A stretch of DNA of 24,463 bases from a virus. Its lineage: Duplodnaviria; Caudoviricetes. The DNA lies in IMG/VR virus record IMGVR_UViG_3300017925_000039, positions 1 to 24,463 of that record, one strand, 5' to 3'. Below, piece by piece: positions 1 through 15,172 of the stretch. The translations under genes were made by a program, and so were the position numbers. How positions within the stretch are numbered: position 1 is the first letter of the stretch; each line of letters opens with the position of its first letter. Below the pieces are notes generated by a model. The model was given only the letters and a program-made list of their open reading frames with translations. It searched no databases and was not told where the DNA came from.

Positions 1-1601
1 AGATAGAAGTGAGCAGCCAGAGGATCTGTTTTGGCGAGGGTCCTTCCGTAATCGTCAATCGTATCTTCTTCTGGCTTCTTTCGGGCCGAATACATCCCGT
101 ACAAACCGTAGCGGAACGCGTCGTACGCATCGTCACCTCTCGTATCGACTTTGAGAACGTCGTCCATGTTGTCTGGATCGCGCATCAAAGACGGTATGGA
201 GAGAATGATGTCTCTGCACGTATCGAGGATGACGAGATCACCATTCTTGAACATGTTGTACATCAACGATGCACCGCCGACACGATCAGGGTTCGCTCGG
301 GATACTGAGGGAAGCCCGACTTCACGGTATTCTTTCGATATTTCGTCAGCCGGTGAGTGCTGTGTTACTTGCCTTGCAAACTTTTCATGCGAGAAGAAAA
401 TAGCCTTAGGCTTTATGAATTTCTTCTCAGGGTCGCTGGGCATCTTGCACATGGTTTTGAACATGCTAGCCCACTCTTTGTGAGTTTTGCCGCCCTGTGC
501 AACAGTCTCTCTGAAGCAGACCGTCTTGAGCTTATACTCCGAGCCCATCGTGCGTACCATCGCGCGTGTAAACAAATACGCCGCGTTATGGTGCCCGCCC
601 ATCGACCAGTCTTGTGATCCCCAAACGGGTTGCCAAGATTGCCAGATAATTGCTTCTGGGTCTTCGCGGAGGTCGATAACGTGTTCGAACGGGTCGAAAC
701 AATCGAAATACTGACCTTCAACTGCACCGTCCAAGCCCAGCAGGAGTTTATCCCGCTTGGCCTTCGGCATGCTGTTCAAACGCGCAATAATTCCCGGGTC
801 ACGCTTCAGCAACTCGGGATTATCCATTACGGTCGAACGCTGGCAAGCATATAAAGCGGGATCGTATACACAGTGCCAATTTCCAGATTCCTGTACCCAC
901 CATGTACCATTAGTCTCGTCCTTGCGTGCGCCCTCAGGTTTATTCCAAGGCTCCTTCTGCACAAACAACGTACGGTAGTACTCATAATAAGGACCCAGAG
1001 GGTTTGTACAACCTACGATGACTGGCAAGGGCATGTGACCATGCTGATTTTCTTTGCACCCCGCATTTACTGTATTACGAGAATACAGCATCATCCACGC
1101 ATCTGCTGAAAATTGTCCAGCTTCGTCCACCAGAATTGCTGGATATGCTTGACCGAGATACTGTTCTATATCTCGCATTTTCAAGTTTTGGCAATGACCA
1201 AAAACTACACGAGACCCATTGACAAATGTAGCAACATGTTTCGTTTGATCGTACTTATACAGCTCTGGTGGAATGAAGGTACGGAAATCACTAATCGCTC
1301 CGCTCTCCAACTCTTTGAAAGTACGTCTAAGTACTAATATGTCACAACAATCGTAGGCTAATGTGTAGTTTTCTATCATATACAATAGCCAACCTACAGT
1401 TTTTCCTGATCGAATACCCCCAACACTAAGGCACTGAGGAGCTAACGGGCGAATATACGGTACGCCGTCTTTGGTTCGCATCTCTAGCAATTCTGTCTGC
1501 TTTGGTTGTAATTTGAAAATCTTCCTAAAATCTAATGTGCCGTCCTCATTGAGGTACGCAGGTCTCTCTTTTTTCTCTTCCTTCACCACTTTTTTTGGCA
1601 T
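1..1601 (-). CDS. terL: Terminase large subunit (3' end runs off the window, at least 533 aa)
   Basis: Not in the ORF track because there is no stop in the window. Manual translation from ATG 1601 gives MPKKVVKEEKKERPAYLNEDG..., Walker A GGIRSGKT, Walker B ILVDEAGQF, coupling motif GCTNP, and RNase H-like nuclease motifs GSQDWS and DDAYDAFRY. No in-frame stop was found. Confidence 0.95.
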   Translation of the reverse strand, partial: MPKKVVKEEKKERPAYLNEDGTLDFRKIFKLQPKQTELLEMRTKDGVPYIRPLAPQCLSVGGIRSGKTVGWLLYMIENYTLAYDCCDILVLRRTFKELESGAISDFRTFIPPELYKYDQTKHVATFVNGSRVVFGHCQNLKMRDIEQYLGQAYPAILVDEAGQFSADAWMMLYSRNTVNAGCKENQHGHMPLPVIVGCTNPLGPYYEYYRTLFVQKEPWNKPEGARKDETNGTWWVQESGNWHCVYDPALYACQRSTVMDNPELLKRDPGIIARLNSMPKAKRDKLLLGLDGAVEGQYFDCFDPFEHVIDLREDPEAIIWQSWQPVWGSQDWSMGGHHNAAYLFTRAMVRTMGSEYKLKTVCFRETVAQGGKTHKEWASMFKTMCKMPSDPEKKFIKPKAIFFSHEKFARQVTQHSPADEISKEYREVGLPSVSRANPDRVGGASLMYNMFKNGDLVILDTCRDIILSIPSLMRDPDNMDDVLKVDTRGDDAYDAFRYGLYGMYSARKKPEEDTIDDYGRTLAKTDPLAAHFY

Positions 1602-2163
1602 CTCTGGCTCTCTTAGCCATGCTCATTCTGAGTCTAGTCTCTTCGGTGAATGGAGCACGTTTCCTGCCCAATTTTGCTAAACTCTGTTTACGTCTAGTTT
1701 CTTCAGTAGCTACTCTTCCTATATGGGCAATACTTATTCTTTTCTTTGTCTCTTCAGACCTTGGTGGTCTTTTGGTGCCACGGTGTCTTTTACTTATCTG
1801 AAGCCTTTGCTCAACAGACATCACTTTTCCAGAATTCTTTTCACTAATTCTTTTCTTAGCTTCTTCAGACAGCTTATAACCTTGTCTGCCTTCTCCTCCG
1901 TCTGTCAAATTGTATCCGAAAGGGGCCTTAGTATTTAGAAAAGAAATGTAGAACATCTCTACAAAATTCATTTCTTCCTTGGATTCACAGGTATGCAAAA
2001 TCTCCAACGAAAAACTTTCTTTTCCATATTTTCTTATAGACTTGTGCAAAATGCTCGAATTGGTATTGGAAGTGTGTTCGTTCCATCGTAAATTCAGTTT
2101 CTTTGCAGTTTGTCCTACGTATTTCTTTCCGTTAAGAGCGTTTGTTACTAAGTATACTAACAT
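1546..2163 (-). CDS. Free-standing GIY-YIG homing endonuclease with NUMOD3-like C-terminal repeats (205 aa)
   Basis: VYLVTN..NGKKYVGQT, R..EH, E and GYNLTDGGEG motifs, then repeated (S/T)EETKKRIS-type units. Start placed at ATG 2163 behind GGAGGG. The 3' end overlaps the terL start by 56 nt. Confidence 0.93.
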   Translation of the reverse strand: MLVYLVTNALNGKKYVGQTAKKLNLRWNEHTSNTNSSILHKSIRKYGKESFSLEILHTCESKEEMNFVEMFYISFLNTKAPFGYNLTDGGEGRQGYKLSEEAKKRISEKNSGKVMSVEQRLQISKRHRGTKRPPRSEETKKRISIAHIGRVATEETRRKQSLAKLGRKRAPFTEETRLRMSMAKRARDAKKSGEGREKRETCVPQ

Positions 2164-2243
2164 GTTCCCTCCAGATAAGGTCGAGGAGGGCAGCGTATCT
2201 GGCACCGCCCTCAACTCTAGCCCCGAGCCGCTAAACTCGGAGA
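2164..2243 (-). promoter_or_regulatory. Structured RNA leader copy 1 (hairpin plus SD-sequestering pseudoknot/kissing loop)
   Basis: Minus strand: CTCCGAG-tttagcgg-CTCGGGG CTAG AGTT GAGGGCGGTG [CCAGATA] CGCTGCCCTC ctcgacct TATCTGG AGGG aac ATG. The loop CCAGATA is perfectly complementary to TATCTGG at the SD. Confidence 0.85.
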
Positions 2244-2822
2244 TTACTTATTGTCTACAATTTCTGCCTCTATAAAACTGGGCGTTAGTTTCTCTCTTGG
2301 TTTTTCCTCAGTGATCTGCTTATTGATCATAAATTCTGGTGGAGTGAGTACCACGATCTTCACGCCTTGAGTCTGCATTGCTTCAATCTCTTCTTCACTC
2401 TTGGAAGGTGCACCGTACGCGCGCAAGCTTAGTTCTTTGAACGCCTGAACTGATGCCATGGCACACTTCGCATCCATAACTGTGAGGTATGATCCATCAG
2501 CCAGTCTTATAGGATGCCCTAGTTTGTCCAGAACGGGTTGGTGTGGGGAGGTAGATGCGATCAACACTATGTTGTCGAACATCTCCCTGAATCTACTTTC
2601 AGAACTCTTTTCCCCAGTTACGGGAGCGTTCAGCAAATTGCGCATGAGCCGGGTAACGTCTGCCGTCTTGGGCATCGTTTTGGGGGAACGCACGAATTTT
2701 CCCTTTTCGTTCCTGAACACTTTTACTGGAGTATGAGATTCGTGATGTAGAATCATTTGTTCAGAAGGAGCCGGGGTCTTCTCCGGCTTTCCCTCGGTCT
2801 GCTTTTCTGAGTCTTCTGACAT
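2244..2822 (-). CDS. Hypothetical protein, possible terminase small subunit (192 aa)
   Basis: ATG 2822 with RBS AAGGAG. It lies directly upstream of terL apart from the inserted GIY-YIG cassette, and size and charge fit. The function is inferred from position only. Confidence 0.5.
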   Translation of the reverse strand: MSEDSEKQTEGKPEKTPAPSEQMILHHESHTPVKVFRNEKGKFVRSPKTMPKTADVTRLMRNLLNAPVTGEKSSESRFREMFDNIVLIASTSPHQPVLDKLGHPIRLADGSYLTVMDAKCAMASVQAFKELSLRAYGAPSKSEEEIEAMQTQGVKIVVLTPPEFMINKQITEEKPREKLTPSFIEAEIVDNK

Positions 2823-2832
2823 TGCTGGCTCC

Positions 2833-3165
2833 TTATTTCTTTTTGAACTGGAGCAAAACATTATCAAAAATATACTCCACTGGAGAAATCAAATACTTCT
2901 TGGTTAAATCTTCAACTGTCTTCGTGAAGTCTGCCTGCGCCTTCTGCGTAATCTGGCTGAGACGCTGGATTTCCATCTGCGCCTTTAAATACGCATTTTC
3001 AATATCGCGAATAGCGAGTTTTTCTTCGGCGGTCAGTTCCTGCGTCAGTTTCTTCACTTCCGCTTTTACTTCGGCTTCAATCTTTTTAGCCTCGGCAACT
3101 ACTTCACCTTCAACCTTGGCCACTTCTGCTTCTACTGCTTTCACTACTGTTTCAACTTCGCTCAT
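2833..3165 (-). CDS. Hypothetical coiled-coil protein (110 aa)
   Basis: ORF with GGAG RBS, rich in E/K/A/V heptads, packed tightly between its neighbours. Confidence 0.8.
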   Translation of the reverse strand: MSEVETVVKAVEAEVAKVEGEVVAEAKKIEAEVKAEVKKLTQELTAEEKLAIRDIENAYLKAQMEIQRLSQITQKAQADFTKTVEDLTKKYLISPVEYIFDNVLLQFKKK

Positions 3166-3174
3166 CTGAGTCTC

Positions 3175-3648
3175 CTATTTGTATTTGTTTATGTACTTAA
3201 TTGCATTTCTTAGTATTTTTGTGTCTTCAAAAACAAAACCTAAGACAACATTACAATGATGACACAAAAGACCTCTAGGTTCTGGTGGTACAACATGCTT
3301 ATGGTCAGCATGTGGTGTTTCTACAAACTTCTTTTTACAAATTGCACAAGAATTATTTTGCTCTTTTTTCTTTTCCTCCACCATGAGAGGTGTCCAACCT
3401 TTGTCTTTTAACCTGAGTCTTCTTCCCACTTCTGGATGATCTTTGTGGTACTTCCTGAACCTTGCTCGCTCTTTATTCTGGTCTCTGGGGTTCTTTTCAT
3501 TCCAAAGTTTTGCTCTTTTCTTAAACAACTCTGGATTCTTCCTGTAATTTTCTTTAGCGTATGCTATGCTGCATTCTTTACAAGCTCCGCCAGCATATAG
3601 GTTTTCTGGACTCCTTAAATGTCCCCGCTTACAATGTGTCTTTTTCAT
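3175..3648 (-). CDS. Free-standing endonuclease VII-type (His-Me finger) homing endonuclease (157 aa)
   Basis: C-terminal CAIC...HADHKH...RGLLCHHCNVVLG is the Endo VII signature. N-terminal KTHCKRGH...CKEC Zn module. ATG 3648 behind GGAGGGG. Confidence 0.9.
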   Translation of the reverse strand: MKKTHCKRGHLRSPENLYAGGACKECSIAYAKENYRKNPELFKKRAKLWNEKNPRDQNKERARFRKYHKDHPEVGRRLRLKDKGWTPLMVEEKKKEQNNSCAICKKKFVETPHADHKHVVPPEPRGLLCHHCNVVLGFVFEDTKILRNAIKYINKYK

Positions 3649-3725
3649 ATTTACCCCTCCTAGGACGCTCAAAGGGACCGTAGGAGCGGTCCCCGAGCTA
3701 GCCCCGAGCCGCTAAGCTCGGAGAT
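3649..3725 (-). promoter_or_regulatory. Structured RNA leader copy 2
   Basis: Minus strand: ATCTCCGAG-cttagcgg-CTCGGGG CTAG ctcg GGGACCG [CTCCTA] CGGTCCC tttgagcgtcc TAGGAG gggtaaat ATG. The first hairpin is nearly identical to copy 1, and the loop CTCCTA pairs with the SD TAGGAG. Confidence 0.85.
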
Positions 3726-3728
3726 ATT

Positions 3729-4106
3729 TCAGAAGATAGTCAGACCTCGTACCAAAGCATTTTTCTTGAAAATTCCACGATCTCCGATGTAGTTTCTCCA
3801 CTGCTCAAAAACGGGTCCGTGATTGTCTTTCAAATCCGAGGCTATATGCACCATTTCGTGGCTGAGAGTGAGTAGCCGAGTGGATACGGGCTTACACATT
3901 TTTCTGCTGAGAACAATTACATAGTCATGGTAATTGTCGTTGGCCTTGTCTGCCCAACCAAAGAATTTGTCTTCGCAGTTTATGCCTTGCTCTCCGTCGT
4001 CTTCTTCATTTGCCCAGCGAACACATACGTTGTTGGTGAGTTGATTGTCGAAAAAACGCTTGTTGATTTTCTTATACCAACGCTTCAGAGTAGGGTCCGA
4101 CCGCAT
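3729..4106 (-). CDS. SprT-like zinc metalloprotease domain protein (125 aa)
   Basis: INKRFFDNQL...TLSHEMVH...HGPVF is the SprT-like HExxH..HG.F pattern. ATG 4106 behind GGAG. The track's longer start overlaps a terminator. Confidence 0.8.
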   Translation of the reverse strand: MRSDPTLKRWYKKINKRFFDNQLTNNVCVRWANEEDDGEQGINCEDKFFGWADKANDNYHDYVIVLSRKMCKPVSTRLLTLSHEMVHIASDLKDNHGPVFEQWRNYIGDRGIFKKNALVRGLTIF

Positions 4107-4165
4107 TGTCTTTCTCCAAGTCCACCACGCGTTTCCCGCGCATTCGGACAAGGTATTTATGGCAC

Positions 4166-4200
4166 AAAAAAAGCCCAAGCGCTTTTTGAGCACTTAGGCT
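4166..4200 (-). terminator. Intrinsic terminator closing the tRNA/ncRNA operon
   Basis: Minus strand AGCCTAAGTGCT-CAAAA-AGCGCTTGGGCT followed by a T run. Confidence 0.85.
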
Positions 4201-4223
4201 GGTATGAATTATTTATGATTTCT

Positions 4224-4298
4224 TGGTGGACAGCGCCGGTTATGCTCCGACGACTCAGCGTTGCAAACGCCGTGCGTTCCTGATTACGCCAGCCGCCC
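4224..4298 (-). tRNA. tRNA-Ala(UGC) with non-canonical T-loop
   Basis: GGGCGGC TG GCGT-AATCAGGA-ACGC A CGGCG-TT TGC AA-CGCTG AGTC GTCGG-AGCATAA-CCGGC GCTGTCC A CCA. Full cloverleaf, G3:U70 alanine identity pair and encoded CCA. Confidence 0.85.
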
Positions 4299-4304
4299 AC
4301 ATAA

Positions 4305-4545
4305 AAGCTGGCTTCGAGTTTTACGAAGCCACCCCCTGAATTGCACAGGTTCGGCTCATTGTGTACTTGGGTTGAACCATACAGACCCGTTTGCTACGCT
4401 TTCAGGTTTGATGCATTCAAACCGGGCAGGAGCCGCCCATTCATCGCTATTGCGATGCTCAGTGTCGGCACTCTGAGGAGCCGGGTAAGAATCGCTTAGC
4501 GTATCTTACCATTCAGCGCAGCTTTTCAAGCCTACACGCTGAAAC
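4305..4545 (-). ncRNA. Candidate large structured ncRNA between two tRNAs
   Basis: About 10 stems in ~240 nt, including GGTAAGA/TCTTACC, CATCGC/GCGATG, GGGCGG/CTGCCC, GGTTTGA/TCAAACC, TGGCTTCG/CGAAGCCA and a long-range CGGCTC/GAGCCG pair. No credible minus-strand CDS. Confidence 0.65.
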
Positions 4546-4547
4546 TT

Positions 4548-4625
4548 TGGAGCCCAAGGAAGGAATTACACCCTCGACCCTCGCATATTACAAGTGCGAT
4601 ACTCTGTTGACTGAGCTACATGGGC
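4548..4625 (-). tRNA. Atypical tRNA-Thr(UGU)-like gene or pseudo-tRNA with a 9-nt anticodon loop
   Basis: GCCCATG TA GCTC-AGTCAACA-GAGT A TCGCA-CTTGTAATA-TGCGA GGGTC GAGGG-TGTAATT-CCTTC CTTGGGC T CCA. Cloverleaf and CCA are present, but the D-loop lacks GG, the T-loop is non-canonical and the acceptor has a U-U mismatch. Confidence 0.7.
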
Positions 4626-4810
4626 AAAACTTTGCGCCCTAGTGTCGTGGGGCGCTGCACGTCTGTCTACGATATCCGCATTCCGCGTCTACATATCGTA
4701 CGGAACAAACTCGATGGGCGCGAGGGTTGGTTGTCCCTCGCTGTACGTGATACATCAAGCCCTTTACAACTCAAAAAGGGAAATAATTACACTTTCCCCC
4801 CAGTATGTAA

Positions 4811-4840
4811 ATTATACACCCGTACCCCCCTCTTTGTCAA
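4811..4840 (-). promoter_or_regulatory. Consensus sigma70 promoter for the tRNA/ncRNA operon
   Basis: Minus strand TTGACA (4840-4835), 18-nt spacer, TATAAT (4816-4811). The -10 box contains the TAA stop of the upstream ORF. Confidence 0.85.
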
Positions 4841-5282
4841 GTTGAGGTGTTACCAATGCCAACTCTGTAGGCAAGGGGTAGCCCCAAGCGTCATAAGCAT
4901 CCCACGCAGACCTCGCTTCTTCGCTGACCAAGTACAGATCGAGGTCGGTAAGCGCCGCACGCTTTTGTCCTGCCATACGGTTAAGACGCTCGTCTTGTTC
5001 CTCTGGTGACATCTCTGAAATTGTCTTATCAATCAACTTCATTCTTTCTGTTGCTTTCTGAACTTCTTTAATTTCATACACATACTGAAACAAATCCATA
5101 TGCTCACACTTCTCTTTTATGTCCCTTTTTCCGTCCATTCCCCGCATTTTTGCATCTGCCAAGACTTCTGGGGACAAGCTCTCCCTAAGTTTTTCGTAGT
5201 TCTCATCCCATTGATTCTGAAGGATTTCTTGTCGTTCTCTCCTTAGATTCTCCATGGCTAACTTCTTTTCTTCTTTGGTCAT
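4812..5282 (-). CDS. Hypothetical protein (156 aa), likely early-expressed
   Basis: ORF with GGAGG RBS (5293-5289) and its own sigma70 promoter. Charged and helical, with no recognised family. Confidence 0.8.
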   Translation of the reverse strand: MTKEEKKLAMENLRRERQEILQNQWDENYEKLRESLSPEVLADAKMRGMDGKRDIKEKCEHMDLFQYVYEIKEVQKATERMKLIDKTISEMSPEEQDERLNRMAGQKRAALTDLDLYLVSEEARSAWDAYDAWGYPLPTELALVTPQLDKEGGTGV

Positions 5283-5300
5283 TGTGCACCTCCAACAATA

Positions 5301-5329
5301 ATTGTACTACAGGCCCGACCAAAAGTCAA
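5301..5329 (-). promoter_or_regulatory. Leftward sigma70-type promoter
   Basis: Minus strand TTGACT, 17-nt spacer, TACAAT, just upstream of the RBS of ORF 4812..5282. Confidence 0.7.
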
Positions 5330-5353
5330 CAAAATTCCTAGTAACACGTCCGG

Positions 5354-5383
5354 TTGACGCACCGGAACAAAGTGTGTTATCAT
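5354..5383 (+). promoter_or_regulatory. Rightward sigma70-type promoter (divergent partner)
   Basis: TTGACG, 18-nt spacer, TATCAT with an extended -10 TG. Confidence 0.6.
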
Positions 5384-5494
5384 AGACTATAAACCCTGAG
5401 GGCAATGTGTACTATACCTTAGAGGGCTAATAGAATCAACAACTTAGATGTAAGTCCAAGAAAACACACATAGTTAGGGGATTCTCATAGTGTT

Positions 5495-5719
5495 ATGATC
5501 AAAACACCTGAAAACATAAGCAGAGCCCGCCAAGAGGCCGGGGAACAGGCGAAAATCTGGAGGGCAGCAATCGCGGCAGCGCGCGCGGAGCCGATCCTGT
5601 CGCCAGCCAAGCGCACCGAGGTTGAGCATAGGGTAACCTATGCACAAGCCCAGATCGCTGAGATCGCTAAGGAACTGAAGAAGTTGAAAAAGCAAGGAAA
5701 AAAACCTTTCTGGAGATAG
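5495..5719 (+). CDS. Small basic hypothetical protein (74 aa)
   Basis: Ala/Lys/Arg-rich helical ORF downstream of the rightward promoter. The RBS is weak. Confidence 0.6.
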   Translation: MIKTPENISRARQEAGEQAKIWRAAIAAARAEPILSPAKRTEVEHRVTYAQAQIAEIAKELKKLKKQGKKPFWR

Positions 5720-5722
5720 TAT

Positions 5723-5745
5723 ACTGGACAGAAGTTCTGTCCAGT
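5723..5745. repeat. Perfect 11-bp inverted repeat (operator-like or hairpin)
   Basis: ACTGGACAGAA-G-TTCTGTCCAGT. Confidence 0.7.
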
Positions 5746-5808
5746 TCAAGAGTTTCATCCCAAGAGAAGTAGACAGGTTTATAGGTTTTTTTGCCGTCAG
5801 ATTCTGTG

Positions 5809-6005
5809 GTCAACTACCCAGACTAAAGTCTGGGCTTGTAAAAGCAACCCATACCAAAGTTGCCCTCAAGTTAAACAGTTGTACTAGACAAGTCGCGCTT
5901 GTATAGGTGCAAAGTTAGCCGATTGGAAGTGGTATTCCGTAGCATGTGCAGGATGCTTCTCTAGTCCTGCTCCTCTGCATCGGCAACTGTCGAAGAGAAG
6001 TATAC
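5809..6005 (+). ncRNA. HEARO/omegaRNA-like scaffold (IS200/IS605 IscB/IsrB type) with no adjacent IscB ORF
   Basis: Starts GTCAACTACCC, then hairpin CCCAGAC-TAAA-GTCTGGG, GTTGTACTAGAC (partner of the 5' GTCAAC), stem GTTAGCCGAT/ATCGGCAAC, hairpin GCAGGAT-GCTTCTCTA-GTCCTGC, and 3' GTCGAAGAGAAG able to pseudoknot with CTTCTCT. Recognised by recalled resemblance to IscB omegaRNAs. Confidence 0.75.
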
Positions 6006-6024
6006 AGGAGGGCTTATCGCCATT

Positions 6025-6672
6025 ATGCCTCTATCACCGATACAAACTGCTAAGACTGCATATGCCATAACGCAGACTGACATAACAGTAGGGTACGCAG
6101 GGATTCCGATCACATGGCCGGAACCCTTTGCAGACACAGACTATACCATTTCTTTCAGCATTAACGACATTGGACAGAACTTCCTGAGTTTAGACTATGC
6201 CGTAGGCGACATTCATTTCAAGACGCCCCAAGGGTTTGTTGCAGTGATGACGTTGCCTTCATTCTCACCATTGGTGCCGGAGCAACTTCAGGTACAAAAC
6301 ACACTTCTCCCCCAAACCTTATCTTTTGTAGCACCTTTTACCGCGTTGTATGAGCTTACATACTATGTAGACGCTAGGGCAGATGGCGGCAATGGCGGGG
6401 GCTTAATCTTAGAGTACAGTTGGACTGATCCTTCGGGAACTGCTCAAAATACCGATTTCGGAACGATACTGCATTCTGCTTATGGATTTTCTCAAGCTAC
6501 GTATAACGCTTTCGTTTTAGCGGGCACAGTAATCCAGATGCAATCCATTTGGGCCTCTGGGACATATTTTCACTATGATTTGTCCTTTAGCGTTATACAG
6601 GTTCCTTCACCTCAGGTTTCCCCAGCAGTAGGTTCGCTTGTACAAATTGAAGCCATAGCAATTCACAACTAA
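6025..6672 (+). CDS. Putative virion structural protein (beta-rich, tail-fibre/decoration-like, 215 aa)
   Basis: ITWPEPFADTDYTISFS resembles small tail-fibre-associated beta domains. RBS GGAGGG. It sits at the head of the tail arm. Confidence 0.6.
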   Translation: MPLSPIQTAKTAYAITQTDITVGYAGIPITWPEPFADTDYTISFSINDIGQNFLSLDYAVGDIHFKTPQGFVAVMTLPSFSPLVPEQLQVQNTLLPQTLSFVAPFTALYELTYYVDARADGGNGGGLILEYSWTDPSGTAQNTDFGTILHSAYGFSQATYNAFVLAGTVIQMQSIWASGTYFHYDLSFSVIQVPSPQVSPAVGSLVQIEAIAIHN

Positions 6673-6674
6673 AC

Positions 6675-6752
6675 ATCTCTGGACCTCGAATCCAGAGCTA
6701 GAGTGGGGTGGTCCGATAGCCACCCTGCTCAACCTACTATCGGAGGAAAGAA
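6675..6752 (+). promoter_or_regulatory. Structured RNA leader copy 3
   Basis: ATCTCTGGA-cctcgaa-TCCAGAG CTAG AGT GGGGTGGT [CCGATA] GCCACCCT gctcaacctac TATCGG AGGA aagaa ATG. The loop pairs with TATCGG at the SD, extendable to 8 bp. Confidence 0.85.
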
Positions 6753-7403
6753 ATGCCAAGATACGGACATAACAGGCTGCAATTGATTGGTAAAGAGTTT
6801 GGAAACCTAATCGTGATTGCAGCAGCACCAAATACTGCTGCTGGAAAGTCTCGCTGGGTGTGTATGTGTATTTGTGGAAATGAACACATCGCTTATGGGT
6901 CTCACTTGCGTAACGGAAAAATCACAAGTTGCGGGCATTCCCCAGTCTACTGTGTTCATGGACATCTAAGAGTTCCTGAAAACATATATCCTGATGGCAC
7001 TTGCAAAGAGTGTCAAAAAGTTCGTCGTTCTTCAGAAGAGTACAAGTCGGCTAGAAACGAGGAAAGTCGTGTGTTTTATGCCAAGACTGCTTCTAAATAT
7101 AGAAAACAAACTCGCGAAAGAATGGCCGCTCTTAAATTGGAAGTATTGACATACTACAGCCCAGAGCACGTTCTTGGGTGCTGCTGGGAGAATTGCACCG
7201 TCACGGACATCGACATGCTTAGTCTAGATCACATAAACAATGACGGTGCAGAACACAGACGCAGTTTGAATATAGGGGCTAAAGGTGGAGAAAAGTTGTA
7301 TCGTTGGGCAAAGAAAGAAAGTTTTCCTGATGGATTTCAAACTTTATGTATGAACCATCAGTTGAAGAAACAACTGTTATATTTACGTAGCAAAACGACA
7401 TAG
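6753..7403 (+). CDS. Free-standing HNH-like (His-Me finger) homing endonuclease (216 aa)
   Basis: N-terminal GKEFGNLIVI..WVCMCICGN..LRNG..TSCG DNA-binding module, then a CVHGH..CKEC Zn module, and C-terminal CC..C...LSLDHINNDG...FQTLCMNH nuclease motif. Confidence 0.85.
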   Translation: MPRYGHNRLQLIGKEFGNLIVIAAAPNTAAGKSRWVCMCICGNEHIAYGSHLRNGKITSCGHSPVYCVHGHLRVPENIYPDGTCKECQKVRRSSEEYKSARNEESRVFYAKTASKYRKQTRERMAALKLEVLTYYSPEHVLGCCWENCTVTDIDMLSLDHINNDGAEHRRSLNIGAKGGEKLYRWAKKESFPDGFQTLCMNHQLKKQLLYLRSKTT

Positions 7404-7414
7404 AGGAGGTTCGC

Positions 7415-9011
7415 TTGGGTCATACACTGCTTCAACTGGGTTAGATGAATGCAGCCCCCTCGACCAGTAATGGTTGAGTGCAGAATCGTGAGAATTCAGG
7501 GAAACACTCTAAGAGTCAATCCTGAGCCGAGCCGCCTAACGGCGGAAGGTGCAACGACTATCCCGCAAGGGAGTAGGGAACAGCGTTCCCGAAGCACACG
7601 ACGCCCGTTAGGGCGATGATATAGTCTGAACATTGCAGGCGACTGCAAGAGATCAAGCGGAAGCGGTTTGATCGTAACATATTTGACAGCATCTCTCGAT
7701 AGCTTCGGAGGGCTCGCCACGTTTTGCGACCCGCGCGATCTTCCCGAAGGCTCTTCAGGAAGAAATTGGGACATCGACTTTGCTATTGGCTCCGTTTTTA
7801 CGAGGCCGGGTTTGGTGAGTACTTACACATACGCAAGCACTTTGTATATCACTGGCTTTAGTTTGGGTTCAGGCGGGCTTGCGACATTTCAATTCACAGG
7901 GCCGGAGCCAACTATCAACGAGGGCTTCATGCTCTCAGGCTTCACTGGGATATTCTCAGTACTCAACGGGCAGACTGTGTACGTTGAGGCAGTGACCATG
8001 ACGACCTTTATGGCCGTGGCAAACGGGCCCTTAGGTACCTTCAGCGGCCTCAGCGGAACCGCTACATCTCTCACAGGACAATTTGTTGGCCCCAATCAGG
8101 GCACGGTAGCCCTTAGCACTTCTTGGCTTAACCCCTTGAACGTGTACAGCCCTACCGCGTACGCCTCAGCAGATACTGGGGCAAGTATAACAGACCCGAT
8201 TTACCCAACTACCGCAGCCAATCTCAGCTCTCCGAACACGGCGTGGACATCCCCGAGCAATGCGATTGCTGTAGGTGCATCCGTAGCCTCAGTGTCTCTG
8301 TCAATCGGCGGTGCGCCTCCACCGCCTCCCCCGCCACCACCCTCAGGGATAGTGATTGTGCAAGTGCGTACAGGCGGATATGGTTTTGCCAGCACTTCGC
8401 CAGAAGGTGTGCTTTCTGTATCTACCAATCCAGTAGGTTTTTCTAATTCAACTACTGTTAGTAACACTCTTCTCTGTGTAGTGTGGGCAGATTCAGACAA
8501 AGGCACTCCTATCATTAACACTCCCGTGACTACAGGTTTTACATGGGTGTTGGCAGGAACAGCTATATATTCAGACACAGTCAATGGAGAGTATGGCAGG
8601 GTATCGTTATACTACATAAACAATGCAGCAGCAATGTCAGGAACAACCGTAGTAAATGCAGGGAGATCATTGTCAACCTATGTGGAAGTAGAGTTCGCAT
8701 TGTATGAGTTCTCTGGCATCGTAATAGCTTCTGCCATAGATGTGTCTGCAACGAATACAGGAAATACATCAATCCCGAGCACATCATCTCTTGTCACAAC
8801 CGTCAAAGACTTAATTTTCGTTTCCATGCTCTGTGACAACTCTGTTACCCCATCCATAGGTGCAGGGTACACAGCGGGCCTTGCTTCCACCACCATAGCT
8901 TCAGGGTTGAGTCAGTACATTCCCAACCAAGCGGCGGGAACTATAGCCACAGCCTTTGGCACATCTGAAGCACATTGGGCTTGCGTAGCAGTATCATTCA
9001 AGGCGGCATAG
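7415..9011 (+). CDS. Tail hub/stabilisation protein, N-terminal part; spliced join(7415..7441,7686..9011), ~450 aa
   Basis: RBS GAGGAGG plus TTG at 7415. Removing the intron gives MGHTLLQLG|TASLDSFGGLATFCDPRDLPEGSSGRNWDIDF..VFTRPGL, an FGGL...N.D...RPG N-terminus typical of podoviral tail hub/nozzle proteins. Contains a 9-proline linker. Confidence 0.75.
7442..7685 (+). ncRNA. ORF-less group I intron (P7.1/P7.2 present, IA-like), ~244 nt
   Basis: Core elements AATTCAGGGAA, AATCCTGAGC, GTGCAACGACTA and ATGATATAGTCT. P3 TCGTG/CACGA, P7 GACTA/TAGTC, P8 CGCCC/GGGCG. P1 is exon GGGU paired to GCCC with the U.G splice pair. The intron begins with an in-frame TAG and ends in G7685, and splicing restores the frame. 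Confidence 0.9.
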
Positions 9012-9028
9012 TTTAGAAGGAGAACTAC

Positions 9029-12000
9029 ATGTCTACAGCACTTTCGGCACCGATCTTGGTCAGTGGGATAAACTTAGGTTTGCCCTTGACTGCCATAGTT
9101 GCGGGCGTAGAGGTGTCGTGCTCCACAGGTGCCTCGGGCACAGGTTCACCTTCGGTAAACATCCAGTTAGCAAGTAATGGGACAGCCATAGGTAGCTCTG
9201 TGAACGTGCCGATTAGCGGCACGATTTCTCCGTACACCATAGGCGGTCCAACATACCAATGGGGCACTACTTTGACCCCAGCCTTGTTCAACGGTCCGTT
9301 GGGGATACTTGTCACAGCGGAGTTGGATAGCGTTGCAGCAGCGAGCGCTACGTTTAACTTCAACAACCTAACCGCTACTGTGTACTATCTGTCTTCTGCG
9401 CTTTCTGACGTTTTGATTGCGCAGTCGTTCTCTTTTGTTCTGTCAGATTCCTCTGGAGTCTCTGGATTTTTCTCTACATTCAAGGCGTATTCCACTGGCA
9501 GCACTTCGATCTCTCTACAACTGCTGAACAACGGCGTACCCGTAGGCGATCCTAAGACTATCCAGCTTACCTCTGCATCTACTCTCTATCAACTTGGGGG
9601 AGCAAACGATCCTTGGGGATACCCATGGACAGCGGCCAATGTAAACAGCCTTGGCTTCGGTGTGCAGATTACAGCCACAGGCACAGGCACCTCATATGTA
9701 GGCGATCTCGACATCACAACTTTTATTACCCCTGCTCTTGAGAATTTCAACTGGATCGGCTCCTACGAGCAGCAGAACGATGCGCTCACAACCCTCGCTC
9801 TCGACGCTGGTGGCAATATGTGGAAGGAAGACCCGGTGAATAACCCGGGAGTTCTGTCTCTGACTTTAGCAGGACTCTTGCCGGGGTCATTCGCCAATGG
9901 TGCAACCCTAGACAACTCTGAGTTCGTCATGTTCTCGGATTTGACTGTGGGCACAGACCGCCCTCGTCAGTTGTACAGCGACGGCAACTGGTACCCGGTA
10001 ACCCAAGTGGGCCCCGGGGCACCTCCGAGATTCCTAGCCAGCACAGGTTCCCTCAGCGGGCTGCTTACTCTTAAGAGTTACGCTTGGACCGCTGGGGCTA
10101 CCCCCGGCACAGGCACAGCCGTTCTTACGTATGCTACGGCATCTGTGGCACCGACCGTAGGTTCTATCTACGTGATTTCTGGCACAGGCACAGCCCTCGA
10201 TGGGCAAGCCGCGATTGTCTCAGGGAGCCCTGCGCCCACCACTGCGGCGTTCACCGCCGAAGTGACAGGCACATATGGCTCGGGAACTATCACTGTCCCG
10301 CTAGGGGCTTTACTCACTCCTCAGTTCTTTTATGAAGTGGCATCTATCACTGAGACACGGGCTATCACAAACGTATCAGGTACGCCGCGCTTCGTTTTGA
10401 GCGCTGGCCCCGGCGTCACAACGGCAGGGAACAATGTCACGGTGTACTACAGCATTCATGGTTTGCCTATCGACACCTTGCTGCAGACAATGTTTGCATC
10501 TGGGAACGGGTTGTATATTTACATCTCCAATGCTGTGTCTGGGCAGTACAATTTCAATGGCGTATGGCAAGTCACTGCGGTCGGGCAAGGTAATCCCCCC
10601 GGAGTCAGCCAAACCATAGGGTACTTCTGTTTCACGTACGTCAGTTCTGGGACTCTTGACAGCATCATAGCTGGAGCAACGTTCCAAGTAACCCAAGCCA
10701 CGGTAGCTTTCCCATCCCCCGGAATTCTGGGACTATCTGCTGGTCAGCAGTTTACGATAACAGGTGTCACAGGTTCTCCGCAGTCTGGTTGGAATGGTAC
10801 ATGGACTACTGTAGAGGCTCTAAACTCCGGTCAGTACATCATCGACACGACATACTCAGACGGGACTACAGCAACCTATACATACTCCTATGCAGGCAGC
10901 AATAATCAAGACCCCATATCGGGAAACTACATCACGATCACAGGGGCTCTGCAGAACCAAGGGTACAACGGCACCTTCATCATTGCCACGGTAAATACCG
11001 GGGCGCACTCTTTCACAGTTGCCAACTTGGGACTCCCTGCTACAGTAGGGAACCCTGTAGATGAGCATTCAACTGCACAGGCAACTATGTCTGGTACGCA
11101 GTTTACATTTGACCCGGGCGAGACTTTCGTAGGTACCAACACAAATGTTATCTACGGGAACACCACGTACGCTGTGAATAACGGGCAGGTTACGATCATT
11201 GGCAACACCATCACGCCCATAGGCGCAGGAACGCGTAATGCATTCGTGTTCTTCATCACGAAGACGGGGGAGTGGACACCCGCATCTCCTATCCTTGCAC
11301 AGCCGTTTACTACACCTTCGAATGCAAACCTTTTGAATGTGTCCAACATTCCTATAGGCCCTCCTAACGTCGTCGCGCGTGGAATTGCGATAACCGAGGC
11401 AGGTGCTAATGGCGTGCCCGGGGCTAACTACTATGTGATTGAAAGACCCGTAACCCTGACGGTAAATGGGGTTACTACCACATACAGTTCTACAATTATC
11501 AACAACAACACCGACACCACAGCATCTCTCAGCTTTACGGATGCGGTTCTGCTGAATTCTACAGAAGTGGACATCCCCGGTTTCGATCTGTTTAACCTGA
11601 TTGAACTGGGAAGCTGCGCTTGGTGTGTGCCGTACTCCAGCCGTATGTTCTACGGCATGCAGTTGAACAAGGTGCAGAACTTCGACAACCTGACGTTCGA
11701 TGGTGGATCGAAATTAGAAGGTTGGGGTCTATACCCCACTGCTAATGAAATCCAACTGGTAAACAGCCCTGTAACAGGCATGGCCTATTATGTGTCCAAT
11801 ACAACTGGAAGCACACAGGCACAGATGGGGCTGATTTCACAGACCGCTTATCAAGACATATTCAACGTCGCAATTATCAACGCCAACACAGCGTATTCGG
11901 TACGCGTGGCTGCTTCCAAACCCTCTGGGGTAAGCACAGGCAACTTGGTGATTGATCTGACGGATTTGAATGGAGGAAACTTCGGGAAAACCTACGGGTC

Positions 12001-13354
12001 TTTCACGGTTCCACTATCAAGCATGAGTTCTTTGCCTAAGGTATTTTCAGGAACCCTGTTGAACAACGGAATCTTCACTGGCAACGTATCTCCCATACTT
12101 CAACTGCGCATGTCAGTGCAGAACATGGGTGCAGGGGCTGACGTGTTGGTGGACAGAATCGAAGTCTTTCCTACTCTCTTCCCGTATCTGAAGACGGAAG
12201 TCTATGGCTCCTACATCAACAAACCTGAATGGGTAGATGCCTCGGGCGACGGCGGAATTATTGATACGAGCACGGAAAATCCGCAAACGTGCTATGGAGC
12301 TGCCGTTTTGCGCGACAGCATGTACCTGCTTAAGACAAGCAGCATGTACGTCACGAAGGACAATCCGAATTCCGAACCCGGGGGTTGGAGCTTGAACGAG
12401 ATCAGCAACCGAGTGGGTGCCTGTGGCATCAACGCGTACGACGTGGGTGAAGAATGGATAGTCACTGCGTGTCGCAACGGCATCTTCGGGTTTACAGGCT
12501 CATCTCCTGAGCTTATAAACTTGGAAATACTTCAGGTATGGAACGCAATCAACTGGAATGCAGGAAATACTATTTGTCTTAGGAATGATACAGAAAACCG
12601 CAGGATTTTATGCGCTGTGCCTTTGCCAACCGGAACTTCACCTGAGGGTATACCAACGGCTACGGTTCAGTGGTTGCCCTATGCACCTTATAATCCTGCT
12701 CCGCTTACCCCCAATGTTTTACTAATATTAAACTACCAAGGCATCGGGTCGTTTGAGGAGTTGTTGCACAACATATCGGTCCACTGTACCATGTATGGGA
12801 CGCTAGCCGCCCCAGACATGCGCAGGAAGTGGACAATCTGGCAGATACCTACTCCGTATATGGGGCTGGTAACTAGAGCAAACCTCATTGACATGCCTCT
12901 GATGGTCTGTAACGGGATTGAATCTTCTAAGATTTACCAGTTCGACATCAATGCAACCAGTGATGATGGAGCTGCTATCTGGGGCTTATACACCACGTAC
13001 GGTTTTGTAAACGCTCAAAAAGCAGTGACCATGCCTATACTAGGGTTGCACAATAAAAGGTACACCGTGTTGCAGTTTAATGCACAAGGTGAGGGAAATG
13101 CGAAGATTAGATTGTTACCCAACGATCTGAACGCTCGTTATCCTTATTCCATACCCGGAGGAGTGAATCTTTCTTATCCCGTTATGGATGACTACATGAA
13201 GTCGATAAACGCCAAAGGTCAAAGAATGTTCTATGAAATTTCTACTGACGCAGTTGGAAGTTGGTGGGAACTTTGCAAAGTTCTTTTGACAGGTAAGGCT
13301 GACCCCTGGAGTCCAATCAACCCCACGGGTGGAGGCAATGCTGGAATAGTGTAA
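9029..13354 (+). CDS. Large tail hub/nozzle-like virion protein, C-terminal part, with inserted beta-rich domains (1441 aa)
   Basis: RBS AAGGAG. G/T/S-rich beta domains. The C-terminal propeller-like region (VGACGINAYDVGE, IYQFD..SDDG, YTTYGF) is consistent with P22 gp10/T7 gp12-like proteins. Confidence 0.75.
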   Translation: MSTALSAPILVSGINLGLPLTAIVAGVEVSCSTGASGTGSPSVNIQLASNGTAIGSSVNVPISGTISPYTIGGPTYQWGTTLTPALFNGPLGILVTAELDSVAAASATFNFNNLTATVYYLSSALSDVLIAQSFSFVLSDSSGVSGFFSTFKAYSTGSTSISLQLLNNGVPVGDPKTIQLTSASTLYQLGGANDPWGYPWTAANVNSLGFGVQITATGTGTSYVGDLDITTFITPALENFNWIGSYEQQNDALTTLALDAGGNMWKEDPVNNPGVLSLTLAGLLPGSFANGATLDNSEFVMFSDLTVGTDRPRQLYSDGNWYPVTQVGPGAPPRFLASTGSLSGLLTLKSYAWTAGATPGTGTAVLTYATASVAPTVGSIYVISGTGTALDGQAAIVSGSPAPTTAAFTAEVTGTYGSGTITVPLGALLTPQFFYEVASITETRAITNVSGTPRFVLSAGPGVTTAGNNVTVYYSIHGLPIDTLLQTMFASGNGLYIYISNAVSGQYNFNGVWQVTAVGQGNPPGVSQTIGYFCFTYVSSGTLDSIIAGATFQVTQATVAFPSPGILGLSAGQQFTITGVTGSPQSGWNGTWTTVEALNSGQYIIDTTYSDGTTATYTYSYAGSNNQDPISGNYITITGALQNQGYNGTFIIATVNTGAHSFTVANLGLPATVGNPVDEHSTAQATMSGTQFTFDPGETFVGTNTNVIYGNTTYAVNNGQVTIIGNTITPIGAGTRNAFVFFITKTGEWTPASPILAQPFTTPSNANLLNVSNIPIGPPNVVARGIAITEAGANGVPGANYYVIERPVTLTVNGVTTTYSSTIINNNTDTTASLSFTDAVLLNSTEVDIPGFDLFNLIELGSCAWCVPYSSRMFYGMQLNKVQNFDNLTFDGGSKLEGWGLYPTANEIQLVNSPVTGMAYYVSNTTGSTQAQMGLISQTAYQDIFNVAIINANTAYSVRVAASKPSGVSTGNLVIDLTDLNGGNFGKTYGSFTVPLSSMSSLPKVFSGTLLNNGIFTGNVSPILQLRMSVQNMGAGADVLVDRIEVFPTLFPYLKTEVYGSYINKPEWVDASGDGGIIDTSTENPQTCYGAAVLRDSMYLLKTSSMYVTKDNPNSEPGGWSLNEISNRVGACGINAYDVGEEWIVTACRNGIFGFTGSSPELINLEILQVWNAINWNAGNTICLRNDTENRRILCAVPLPTGTSPEGIPTATVQWLPYAPYNPAPLTPNVLLILNYQGIGSFEELLHNISVHCTMYGTLAAPDMRRKWTIWQIPTPYMGLVTRANLIDMPLMVCNGIESSKIYQFDINATSDDGAAIWGLYTTYGFVNAQKAVTMPILGLHNKRYTVLQFNAQGEGNAKIRLLPNDLNARYPYSIPGGVNLSYPVMDDYMKSINAKGQRMFYEISTDAVGSWWELCKVLLTGKADPWSPINPTGGGNAGIV

Positions 13355-13357
13355 GAA

Positions 13358-13436
13358 ATCTCTGGAATAATTACCCAGAGCAGAGTTGGGAGATGCTATG
13401 AACATCTCCCTTCTCACCTTTTCATAGGAGGAAAAA
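13358..13436 (+). promoter_or_regulatory. Structured RNA leader copy 4
   Basis: ATCTCTGG-aataattac-CCAGAG CAG AGTT GGGAGATG [CTATGAA] CATCTCCC ttctcacctt TTCATAG GAGG aaaaa ATG. The loop is perfectly complementary to TTCATAG. Confidence 0.85.
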
Positions 13437-13961
13437 ATGCCAAACGCAAAGTTTTATAAAAAGCATGCAGAAAGACTTAAAAAGCAAAACGCTGAGTACT
13501 ACAAGCGTAATCGTAGAAAAGTCTTAGCAACAAACAAAAGGTGGAACGATTCTCATCCCGAGAAGATGAAAGAAGCTTCTAAAAAGTGGGCAGAATCAAA
13601 CCCCGAGGAAGCCCTTGCAAGGTACAGAAGGTACCAGAACAAAAACAGAGAATTATGCAGGGCTAGATGCCGAGATTACCAGAAGAGAAACCCTGAGGTT
13701 TTCAAGGCTAAGAACAACAAGTACACCACATCTAAAACGGGTGCAGGTGGTTCCTTCGCTGCTGCCGAGTGGAAAGCTTTGTGTAAGCAGTGCCATAATC
13801 GTTGCTTATGCTGTGGCAAGCGTAGGAAACTCACAGCAGACCATGTGATCCCAGTCTCTAAGGGCGGATCAAGCAACATAGAAAACATTCAGCCTCTTTG
13901 CCAACCTTGCAATTCAAGCAAAGGAAATAAGACAATAGACTACAGGAGGAGAACCCAATGA
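13437..13961 (+). CDS. Free-standing HNH homing endonuclease (174 aa)
   Basis: C-terminal CLCCG...LTADHVIPVSKGGSSNIENIQPLCQPCNSSKG and N-terminal basic helical (W/Y)..N(P)E repeats. ATGA overlap with the next gene. Confidence 0.93.
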   Translation: MPNAKFYKKHAERLKKQNAEYYKRNRRKVLATNKRWNDSHPEKMKEASKKWAESNPEEALARYRRYQNKNRELCRARCRDYQKRNPEVFKAKNNKYTTSKTGAGGSFAAAEWKALCKQCHNRCLCCGKRRKLTADHVIPVSKGGSSNIENIQPLCQPCNSSKGNKTIDYRRRTQ

Positions 13962-14581
13962 TCGGCAAATCAGCAATCCTAGAAGGTGGTCAGGAGCTGA
14001 CTAAGATTCAGCAGCAAGACTTCAACAACGGTACCCTCCTCCAACGCATCATTGATGCGGTTAATTCCGTAGCTTTGAACCTAGGTGGCGCGGCAGTAGG
14101 AAAACTTACCCCACCTCCTCCGATAAATTCGATTCAAGTCAGTGGCACGCAGAGTGGAAACGTCATCACCTGTGCTAGCGAACATCTGCATCTTACCTTA
14201 ACCCACAACGGGGAGTTAAGAAAAGGCATCCAATATATCCACGAGATCGCTACGGAACCAAACTTTCTGGCTCCGCACATAATTGATGGAGGCAGTAGCA
14301 GATCTTTGTTCGTACATCTACCCGCATTGGATAACAACGGAAAAGTTCAGACTTATTACCATAGAGCATTCGCACAATATAACGGTTCCGATCCGCAAAA
14401 ACCCACGGTTCTTGGCGGCCTAGCAAGTGCGACACAGATTCAAATGACCGGCACGAGCAAGTGTACACTCCTTAGCTCTACCGGGTCAGGCACAGCCGAT
14501 CCTTCTGGTATGCAAGGGGGCAAGGGGTTGGGCACGGTATTAACGCGCCCCGCACCGGGACCGAAGAGGAATGTAGCATAG
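13958..14581 (+). CDS. Hypothetical virion protein (207 aa)
   Basis: RBS AGGAGG, translationally coupled, and located between the tail hub and GNAT-like genes. Confidence 0.75.
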   Translation: MIGKSAILEGGQELTKIQQQDFNNGTLLQRIIDAVNSVALNLGGAAVGKLTPPPPINSIQVSGTQSGNVITCASEHLHLTLTHNGELRKGIQYIHEIATEPNFLAPHIIDGGSSRSLFVHLPALDNNGKVQTYYHRAFAQYNGSDPQKPTVLGGLASATQIQMTGTSKCTLLSSTGSGTADPSGMQGGKGLGTVLTRPAPGPKRNVA

Positions 14582-14611
14582 AAGTCGGGCGTAGTTTTTA
14601 CACGCCCAGAA

Positions 14612-14689
14612 GTCTAGGACCTCGAATCCTAGATTAGGGTTGGGAGGTGCCAGTTACATCTCCCTTCTCGACCTTAACTGGAGGAAGAA
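14612..14689 (+). promoter_or_regulatory. Structured RNA leader copy 5 (not followed by a nuclease)
   Basis: TCTAGGA-cctcgaa-TCCTAGA TTAG GGTT GGGAGGTG [CCAGTTA] CATCTCCC ttctcgacct TAACTGG AGGA agaa ATG. The first loop is identical to copy 3 and the second stem is near-identical to copy 4. Confidence 0.85.
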
Positions 14690-15172
14690 ATGACTATGTG
14701 GGCCATGCAACTCCAAAAAAGGATCGAAGTGCTCAGATCACAGATTAAAGGGAGAGAAAAAATGAGTGAAGAAGCCCTAATTAGAAACTACACTCCCAGA
14801 GATTTTCTTTCTATACGTAAAATTCATGAGAAGAATAACATAGACTACTGTTTGCCTGATCTTAGTAGATTCTTAATCAATAAGGTCTTAGAAGTAGATG
14901 GAGAAGTTAGAGCCTCTTATGGTATGCAAAGTGCTGCTGAATGTTACCTTTGGCTAGACAAGGGAAATTGGACTGGTGCCGAAGAGCGCTGGTTGGCAAT
15001 CAAGGCTTTGGACAGAGAAGCTACAGAAGAGGTTCGGAAACTGGGAATAGAAAACGTTTTGTGCTGCATTCCCCCAGGGTATGAAAGATTTGGAAGACGC
15101 ATCAAAGAATTAGGCTACAAACCCCTACGTGATGGGTGGACGATTTACTGCAAAGCAGGAGACCGAAAATGA
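14690..15172 (+). CDS. GNAT-like acetyltransferase-fold virion assembly protein (P22 gp14/T7 gp13 position); alternative start at 14762
   Basis: LIRNYTPRDF..I..IH N-terminus and RKLGIENVLC...FGRRIKELGY C-terminus are GNAT-like. It lies just before the ejection proteins. The second ATG at 14762 has its own GGGAG RBS. Confidence 0.6.
   Translation: MTMWAMQLQKRIEVLRSQIKGREKMSEEALIRNYTPRDFLSIRKIHEKNNIDYCLPDLSRFLINKVLEVDGEVRASYGMQSAAECYLWLDKGNWTGAEERWLAIKALDREATEEVRKLGIENVLCCIPPGYERFGRRIKELGYKPLRDGWTIYCKAGDRK

Follow-up and report, generated by a model that had tools for sequence, protein, structure and literature searches.

A covarying three-hairpin RNA leader ahead of mobile nuclease genes in uncultured tailed phages, and its possible role as a lock on translation

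Introduction

Homing nucleases are toxic to their carriers. In the T-even phages, the accessible text of PMC3014915 describes several that are kept at low levels by RNA that sequesters the ribosome-binding site (RBS), among them I-TevI, I-TevII, I-TevIII, segB and Aeh1 mobE, and reports that the I-TevI hairpin is bypassed via a late promoter. The present study concerns an RNA leader of approximately 80 bases that occurs five times in a 24,463-nucleotide stretch of phage DNA (IMG/VR record IMGVR_UViG_3300017925_000039, positions 1 to 24,463; hereafter the window), each time directly before a nuclease gene or the remnant of one.

Other leaders control initiation by different means. In the maturation leader of MS2, delayed folding provides a window for translation before a strong Shine-Dalgarno sequence (SD) is sealed (PMC4615214, accessible text). 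A pseudoknot in the T4 gene 32 operator, located 67 nt upstream, nucleates protein binding (PMC3014915), and the timP pseudoknot activates translation according to the accessible part of PMC11228461. DNAVirus_8080, an unannotated candidate RNA from 2023, measures 79 nt, is represented by 29 sequences that derive partly from soil and wetland viruses, has one covarying base, and precedes HNH, GIY-YIG and AP2 genes by at most 25 bp (PMC10690425, accessible parts). Compared by length and gene context only, it could be the same family as the leader described here, or a sister to it. The words "HNH" and "kissing" are absent from the main text of PMC10690425, as are "endonuclease", "HNH" and "int-alpA" from the main text of PMC5737381, both in the portions that could be searched. 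A literature search, with most subscription papers outside its reach, found no prior description of the leader.

The leader family is genuine, covaries strongly and is associated with mobile nucleases; it has no match in Rfam and possibly one earlier, unannotated listing. It would represent a known kind of control in a new and unusual architecture.

Results

Occurrence of the leader

The leader consists of a hairpin P1, a hairpin P2 and a small hairpin P3 at the SD, and the loop of P2 is complementary to a partner strand at the SD with which it may form a loop-loop helix, or kiss. Three IMG/VR pattern scans, one metagenome scan, the relatives of the window terminase and a whole-record search produced 117 distinct copies in uncultured phage DNA (108, and nine later). 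While no search pattern ever required the loop complement, 113 of the 117 copies have a perfect loop/partner match of 6-7 bp. Among the first 108, a perfect 6- or 7-bp match is present in 104, with 54 different loop sequences, and the remaining four are truncated or decayed. A complement of at least 6 nt was present in 63 of 68 distinct metagenome matches (one of those with a complement, L137, is no model hit) versus one of 30 matches from GTDB. A pattern that left the SD free retrieved 15 new copies, 14 of which kiss. Three near-complete phage records of approximately 100 kb gave three, eight and four hits with the covariance model, three of these 15 being weak, and all nine new full-length copies from these records kiss (one parsed by eye).

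A pattern scan of GTDB yielded no convincing copy among 31 loci (best model score 22.9 bits), and a BLAST search of cultured phages with copy 5 gave chance matches only (E 0.3). The sequence-only reading of the window had not recognized the element as a described RNA family, which agrees with the searches of Rfam 15. No copy was matched at E up to 5 when the window was searched, nor was copy 5 alone at E up to 10; across 20 homologous loci at E up to 10, the best result was a single match on the antisense strand (E 5.5). The possibility that the loops serve as non-interfering addresses within a genome was considered and is unsupported, as L031 holds two copies with an identical loop and the random cross-match rate between loops is 2.9%.

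Fold and covariation

From 5' to 3', the fold proceeds as A-U, P1, CUA, P2, GA and P3. Covariation was analyzed on 72 copies (72 of 77 parsed, with copy 5 added). In this alignment 91.6% of the cells are paired, compared to 41-50% in slid controls; 23 of 29 pairs have changed on both sides, and 6 of the 7 kiss pairs are double-changed. Kinship among the sequences inflates the shuffle control, but the count of independent loop codes is unaffected by it. The earlier claim that the P1 and P2 stems co-vary is thus borne out. Pairs of G and U are common, with U-G in 46 of the 72 copies at one P1 position, which indicates the sense RNA strand.

The sequence-only reading placed an 11-nt linker with a CCT after P2. 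This was rejected because a lower P2 stem, overlooked in that reading, covaries: its lower pair is A-U in 51 of the aligned copies and C-G in 18, and RNAalifold also recovers the stem. Including the lower stem, P2 comprises 12-13 steps. The true linker is the 2-nt GA; the link between P2 and P3 is 2 nt long in 78 of 87 copies, and the 3' strand of P2 spans 13 nt in 66 of the 87.

P3 is an SD hairpin of 3-4 bp. Its signal was weak in the first alignment because the search patterns had fixed its sequence. In copies obtained pattern-free, double changes appear as CUU/AAG (L291, L348, L008), UCU/AGA (L343), CUUU/AAAG (L347) and UCC/GGA (L233, L045), and these substantiate the small CCU/AGG hairpin proposed at the outset. 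One P3 pair is broken in L281 and L276, and L340 keeps two pairs by eye.

The base of P1 and the preceding A are the most conserved part of the leader. Around the junction where P1, P2 and P3 meet lies a cluster of five invariant and many near-invariant columns. The P1 loops belong to a small number of discrete classes (UUAGCG, CCUCGAA, CUUAUAA, CUUGAUCA, GUUGC and GGCA), some of which resemble the loops of tRNA arms. A pairing between a 5' AUCUC and the SD was also considered and was dropped, as no covariation was seen by eye.

Association with nuclease genes

Nuclease-type matches were obtained for 81 of 91 open reading frames (ORFs) downstream of the leader, in agreement with the expectation that homologues would sit before endonuclease genes. 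A catalytic nuclease family of Pfam is matched by 45 of the 91, and a further 13 match NUMOD3 without such a family. Of the other 33, 23 match PHROGs whose annotation names a homing, HNH or Endo VII nuclease. The leftover ten comprise two ORFs of the same PHROG families, which are unnamed, a homologue of the protein downstream of copy 3, two ORFs of 21-25 aa, four ORFs behind decayed leaders, and copy 5. Terminase was the sole criterion for selecting a set of 16 loci, and there the leader precedes 12 of 15 distinct nuclease-like ORFs, with duplicates and fusion hits removed. Leaders that have lost their nuclease decay (L039, L045, L028, L034, L333).

In two loci the Endo VII domain is fused in frame to the downstream phage gene (L037:4832-5755 +, 308 aa; L046:5971-7134 +, 388 aa), and both fusions stand behind an intact leader. 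A -10-like box (TATAAT or TATACT) occurs a few bases 5' of the leader in L006, L130, L152, L125, L068, L104 and L108; judging from these boxes, some cassettes may own a promoter. Inside the five window copies no sigma-70-like site was found, by a scan that does not cover phage-specific late promoters.

The five copies of the window

The sequence-only reading described five elements of shared architecture, and these stand at the positions it gave, every loop and partner being perfectly complementary; the pair of copy 3 is one base pair longer than had been described. Copy 1 (2164..2244, - strand, 80.6 bits) has P1 at 2242-2221, followed by CUA, P2 from 2217, GA, P3 and the SD, with its loop at 2202-2196 and the partner at 2177-2171. 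It precedes a 205-aa GIY-YIG + NUMOD3 homing endonuclease (1546..2163, -; Pfam GIY-YIG 9.8e-12) whose gene sits between a putative small terminase gene and terL and overlaps the start of terL. Copy 2 (3649..3725, -, 59.4 bits) has a variant lower stem (GCUC/GAGC), a P3 of GUCC/GGGU, its loop at 3686-3681 and the partner at 3662-3657. The downstream gene encodes a 157-aa Endonuclease VII-type nuclease (3175..3648, -; Pfam Endonuclease_7 5.8e-13).

Copy 3 (6675..6752, +, 57.5 bits) pairs its loop at 6713-6719 with 6737-6743 over 7 bp and is followed by a 216-aa HNH-like nuclease (6753..7403, +). Whereas Pfam confirms the GIY-YIG, Endonuclease_7 and HNH assignments made earlier, the HNH assignment of this protein is a PHROG match confined to its N-terminal part (phrog_374 HNH endonuclease, 9e-14, residues 7-63); a His-Me-like motif near the C-terminus was noted by eye. 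The gene lies immediately 5' of a gene that bears a group I intron near its start (7432-7649, +; Rfam 64.3 bits). In L164, too, a group I intron comes after a nuclease, and the free-standing nuclease and the intron may home together.

Copy 4 (13358..13436, +, 58.7 bits) has a P3 of CCUU/GAGG, its loop at 13396-13402 and the partner at 13421-13427, and it precedes a 174-aa HNH endonuclease (13437..13961, +; Pfam HNH 2.5e-15). Its site, common to 15 copies, is occupied by different nucleases in relatives. Copy 5 (14611..14689, +) pairs 14650-14656 with 14675-14681 and matches, base for base, the leader of a 202-aa HNH gene that is intact in L008. It is followed by a remnant of that HNH gene (14690..14765, +).

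The loops of different window copies have at most four complementary bases in common. A loose descriptor (hairpin, loop complement, ATG) located the five copies and two other sites in the window; on 60 dinucleotide shuffles of the window the same descriptor found a mean of 0.53 sites and a maximum of 2. A covariance model from an alignment that included the five found no sixth copy in the window. As the earlier reading had observed for copies 1-4, P1 lies close to the upstream stop codon, which overlaps the conserved A or precedes it by 2-3 nt; in copy 5 the distance is 29 nt.

A cassette with a probably resident leader

At site 1, the upstream stop and terL are 12 nt apart in the empty alleles (L032, L033, L037, L038), and at site 2 (L029, L032, L033, L038, L046) the gap is 22-37 nt by script count. 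These alleles lack both the leader and the nuclease. A GACTCAG motif is present at the empty-site terL starts of L032, L033, L037 and L038; in the window, it recurs between the SD and ATG of several structural-region genes (3171, -; 24149, +).

Leader identity is nearly the same whether the downstream proteins are related (0.69) or unrelated (0.67), and of 29 pairs of nearly identical leaders, 23 stand before proteins that give no BLAST hit to each other, against a background of 77%. By comparison, leaders at the same site have an identity of 0.755 versus 0.674 otherwise, a difference reached in 0 of 1000 permutations (46 site groups among 85 copies). Shared phage ancestry may contribute to this likeness. 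Since the leader sequence tracks the site rather than the nuclease family, the nucleases likely replace one another behind a resident leader. Leader and nuclease would enter a site jointly, and later nucleases would recombine behind the leader already in place. The portable module of the sequence-only reading is therefore retained in that the leader and nuclease come and go together; it is amended in that the leader follows the insertion site and seems to act as a socket that stays in place more than as a passenger.

The lack of an intact nuclease behind copy 5 is explained by a deletion: the window allele has lost 533 nt of the HNH gene that is intact in L008, joining the start codon to the last 73 nt. 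The deletion places the leader ATG in frame with the next gene, which has its own ATG at 14762. This is not an assembly error, since a 60-nt junction contig and the 593-nt full allele coexist in all four of the other runs (depths 48/39, 65/47, 197/240 and 77/145), the deleted allele accounting for 35-58% of the depth. Nuclease ORFs repeatedly lose their interior while keeping the leader and the tail (window 14690-14765; L160:694-783), and a loose end at window position 7350 in run X4 is listed with these internal deletions.

Discussion

A probable lock on the Shine-Dalgarno sequence

In the predicted fold the SD is masked, as was first proposed, with the kiss and P3 jointly covering GGAGG. The two helices have 7+3 bp in 67 and 6+4 bp in 12 of the 91 parsed copies. 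With respect to function, these pairings suggest translational repression by the leader, and the three hairpins over the nuclease RBS are, by a narrow measure, probably an RNA lock that forms late within a single transcript and leaves a short window for translation. During transcription P2 is predicted to zip fully; with P3 alone unstable, the strong SD would be open and a few ribosomes would load. Kissing of the loops would follow, accompanied by a kink in P2 or by the opening of its lower pairs, and would seal the SD. Each transcript would receive a brief translation window, and a nuclease within a strongly expressed structural operon would stay scarce.

Because P3 alone has a median of +0.4 kcal/mol, nested folding leaves the SD nearly open, and the loop duplex contributes approximately -7 kcal/mol with initiation included. 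Masking thus needs the loop-loop helix and is not that of a single hairpin. That a strong SD has been retained and yet can be covered completely suggests two states rather than simple weakness.

The geometry is more demanding. A rigid-helix model was built from A-form values that give a 10 Å deep-groove minimum; it is crude, and its sampling is sparse (17 placements for the 7-bp case). In this model, a straight P2 with the full kiss and P3 leaves a gap of 35-38 Å compared to the 21 Å maximum of a 2-nt linker. Closure within one molecule is obtained without P3 or with the lower P2 open. From this geometry, the three covarying helices and the kiss are most likely not all relaxed in one molecule, and for the lock to form, P2 would have to kink or open, or another transcript take part. 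The earlier suggestion that the P2 loop kisses the SD hairpin is upheld as to complementarity, while a simple intramolecular kiss appears geometrically hard with a full P2.

Several observations weigh against a late lock within one transcript. GGAGG is wholly paired in 95 of the 96 copies that contain it, but the patterns that retrieved most of the copies had GACCT and GGAGG built in, which inflates this count; only two later pattern-free sets escape. Beneath the top 8 nt of P2, opening the stem has a median cost of 6.6 kcal/mol, and for 23 of 87 copies kissing brings a net gain that falls short of -3 kcal/mol. With P2 intact, the rigid model closes in at most 44 of 70,400 placements, and only with a kink of 40-60 degrees and a frayed pair. 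SD masking does not account for P1, for the two linkers CUA and GA, or for the invariant A that precedes P1. Nucleases without a leader exist (3 of the 15 in the terminase-selected loci), the clear exception being an HNH gene (L040:~160-690, -) located away from the structural operon and preceded by a promoter-like box. Finally, a pseudoknot near an SD can activate translation, as the accessible text on timP reports (PMC11228461).

Alternative explanations

If the kiss were to form between transcripts, mRNAs would pair head to tail and seal each other's SD, so that repression would rise with mRNA concentration and buffer the nuclease against operon strength. This is unlikely. It would account for the gap left by a straight P2, for the approximately 22-23 steps of P2, kiss and P3 (roughly two helical turns), and for the conserved spans of the P2 3' strand and linker, and it would spare L082, L105 and L046 the costly opening of 8-11 uninterrupted lower pairs. 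Both phi29 pRNA and bicoid RNA assemble via two complementary loops (PMC7357161, accessible text). However, the crude model does close under the concessions given above, the conserved lengths suit a taut one-molecule fold equally, and loops within a genome show no sign of being kept distinct, given the pair in L031 and the background of cross-matches. A fuller version, in which a self-assembling mRNA lock of dimers or rings is combined with a gene socket and GIY-YIG, HNH and Endo VII genes swap behind the same 80 bases, is doubtful to the same degree. Translational coupling, whereby a ribosome that terminates on the upstream gene unwinds P1 at its base and so alters the fold, with the nuclease made only when that gene is translated, is improbable. 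Of the 77 copies that follow a long ORF, 57 have an upstream stop between -12 and +1 nt relative to the conserved A, and the base of P1 with its A is the most conserved region; yet the other 20 copies fall outside this range, several instead follow a -10-like box, and no conserved alternative pairing was found for the freed P1 strand. Since empty gaps are only 12-37 nt, tight spacing is expected of any insertion and counts against coupling, which leaves the switching by upstream ribosomes raised in the sequence-only reading unsupported.

Control of the lock through the junction, by binding of a small ligand or of a protein from the host or the phage, or through self-cleavage of the RNA, is quite improbable. 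The invariant columns at the junction and the few discrete classes of P1 loop would fit such recognition, but no riboswitch or ribozyme family was matched in Rfam at E up to 5-10, and the hammerhead core CUGANGA is present in 0 of 5 copies. Self-cleavage, another early proposal, consequently finds no support. Since the downstream proteins are unrelated, a common RNA-binding surface is unlikely, and they also have no metabolic theme in common. It is very unlikely that the fold instead aids initiation by freeing or presenting the SD. Nearly every copy has a strong, well-spaced SD, and pseudoknot-dependent activation occurs in IncI repZ as well as in the timP case; here, however, the pairing covers the SD itself, and where the kiss takes only one G of GGAGG (the 6+4 class of 12 copies) an extra U is present, which looks like selection for complete cover of the SD. 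That the repeat is a DNA homology arm for nuclease mobility, with an incidental RNA fold, is scarcely credible. Leader similarity does follow the site, and near-identical leaders do stand before unrelated nucleases, but recombination needs identity and not compensatory pairing, the 54 loop sequences each have their own partner, and G-U pairs are strand-specific.

The phage and other features of the window

The window is part of a tailed-phage genome, with a terminase gene at 3-1601, and the phage was found in peat and wetland sequencing runs. Cultured relatives of the terminase have 24-28% identity. A search for the host covered a single class, that of one acidobacterial metagenome-assembled genome, and identified relatives of at most 37% identity over approximately 450 aa in 50 of 401 genomes, a tally that includes three unpublished genomes (G080, G111 and G332), none of which is the sole basis of any claim; these relatives are no more than a hint of the host. 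A tRNA gene is located at 4551-4625 (-, Rfam 43.9 bits). A HEARO-like RNA was detected at 5809-6005 (+) with 37.9 bits against a gathering score of 83, and no ORF of HNH/IscB size is immediately adjacent.

Significance and comparison with known systems

New here are the lower stem of P2, compensatory evidence for P3, the behavior of the leader as cassette and socket, an explanation for copy 5 and a geometric puzzle. One homologous RNA device for at least three nuclease families at many insertion sites would explain how these genes can tolerate insertion into strong structural operons and why they are exchanged so freely. The 54 natural loop codes offer a directly testable system, and matched pairs may be used as parts of synthetic RNA switches. 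Were the kiss intermolecular, the mRNA would set the level of its own translation through self-assembly, and the literature search found no precedent for this in bacteria or phages.

Among noncoding RNAs associated with nuclease genes, HEARO RNA (RF02033) adjoins HNH genes, and neither its model nor that of int-alpA (RF02996) matches the leader. Two fully complementary loops on one RNA, the pRNA-like feature, are present in 104 of 108 and 9 of 9 copies of the leader. In ColE1, RNA I and RNA II pair completely through 7-nt kissing loops. Two complementary loops per RNA are reported for phi29 pRNA and the bicoid dimer element in the accessible text of PMC7357161. While pRNA, bicoid and ColE1 act in packaging, localization and antisense control, respectively, intermolecular assembly of the leader is only proposed. 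The gene 32 and timP pseudoknots, as far as the accessible texts describe them, resemble the leader in controlling initiation; in the leader, the pairing covers the SD directly. The MS2 maturation leader, in its accessible description, offers a likeness in timing, since a strong SD is sealed after a delay and a scarce protein is translated briefly, a delay that in the leader would follow from the proposed order of folding. It differs in belonging to an RNA phage and in forming a cloverleaf with a long-distance helix, and it has no homology to the leader.

The T-even hairpins, from the accessible account, are alike in placing RNA over the SD of a phage homing nuclease, free-standing ones included, likely with the same purpose. 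In those phages, however, hairpins or helices have been described gene by gene, whereas here a single homologous family of three hairpins with a loop-loop helix is common to GIY-YIG, HNH and Endo VII genes.

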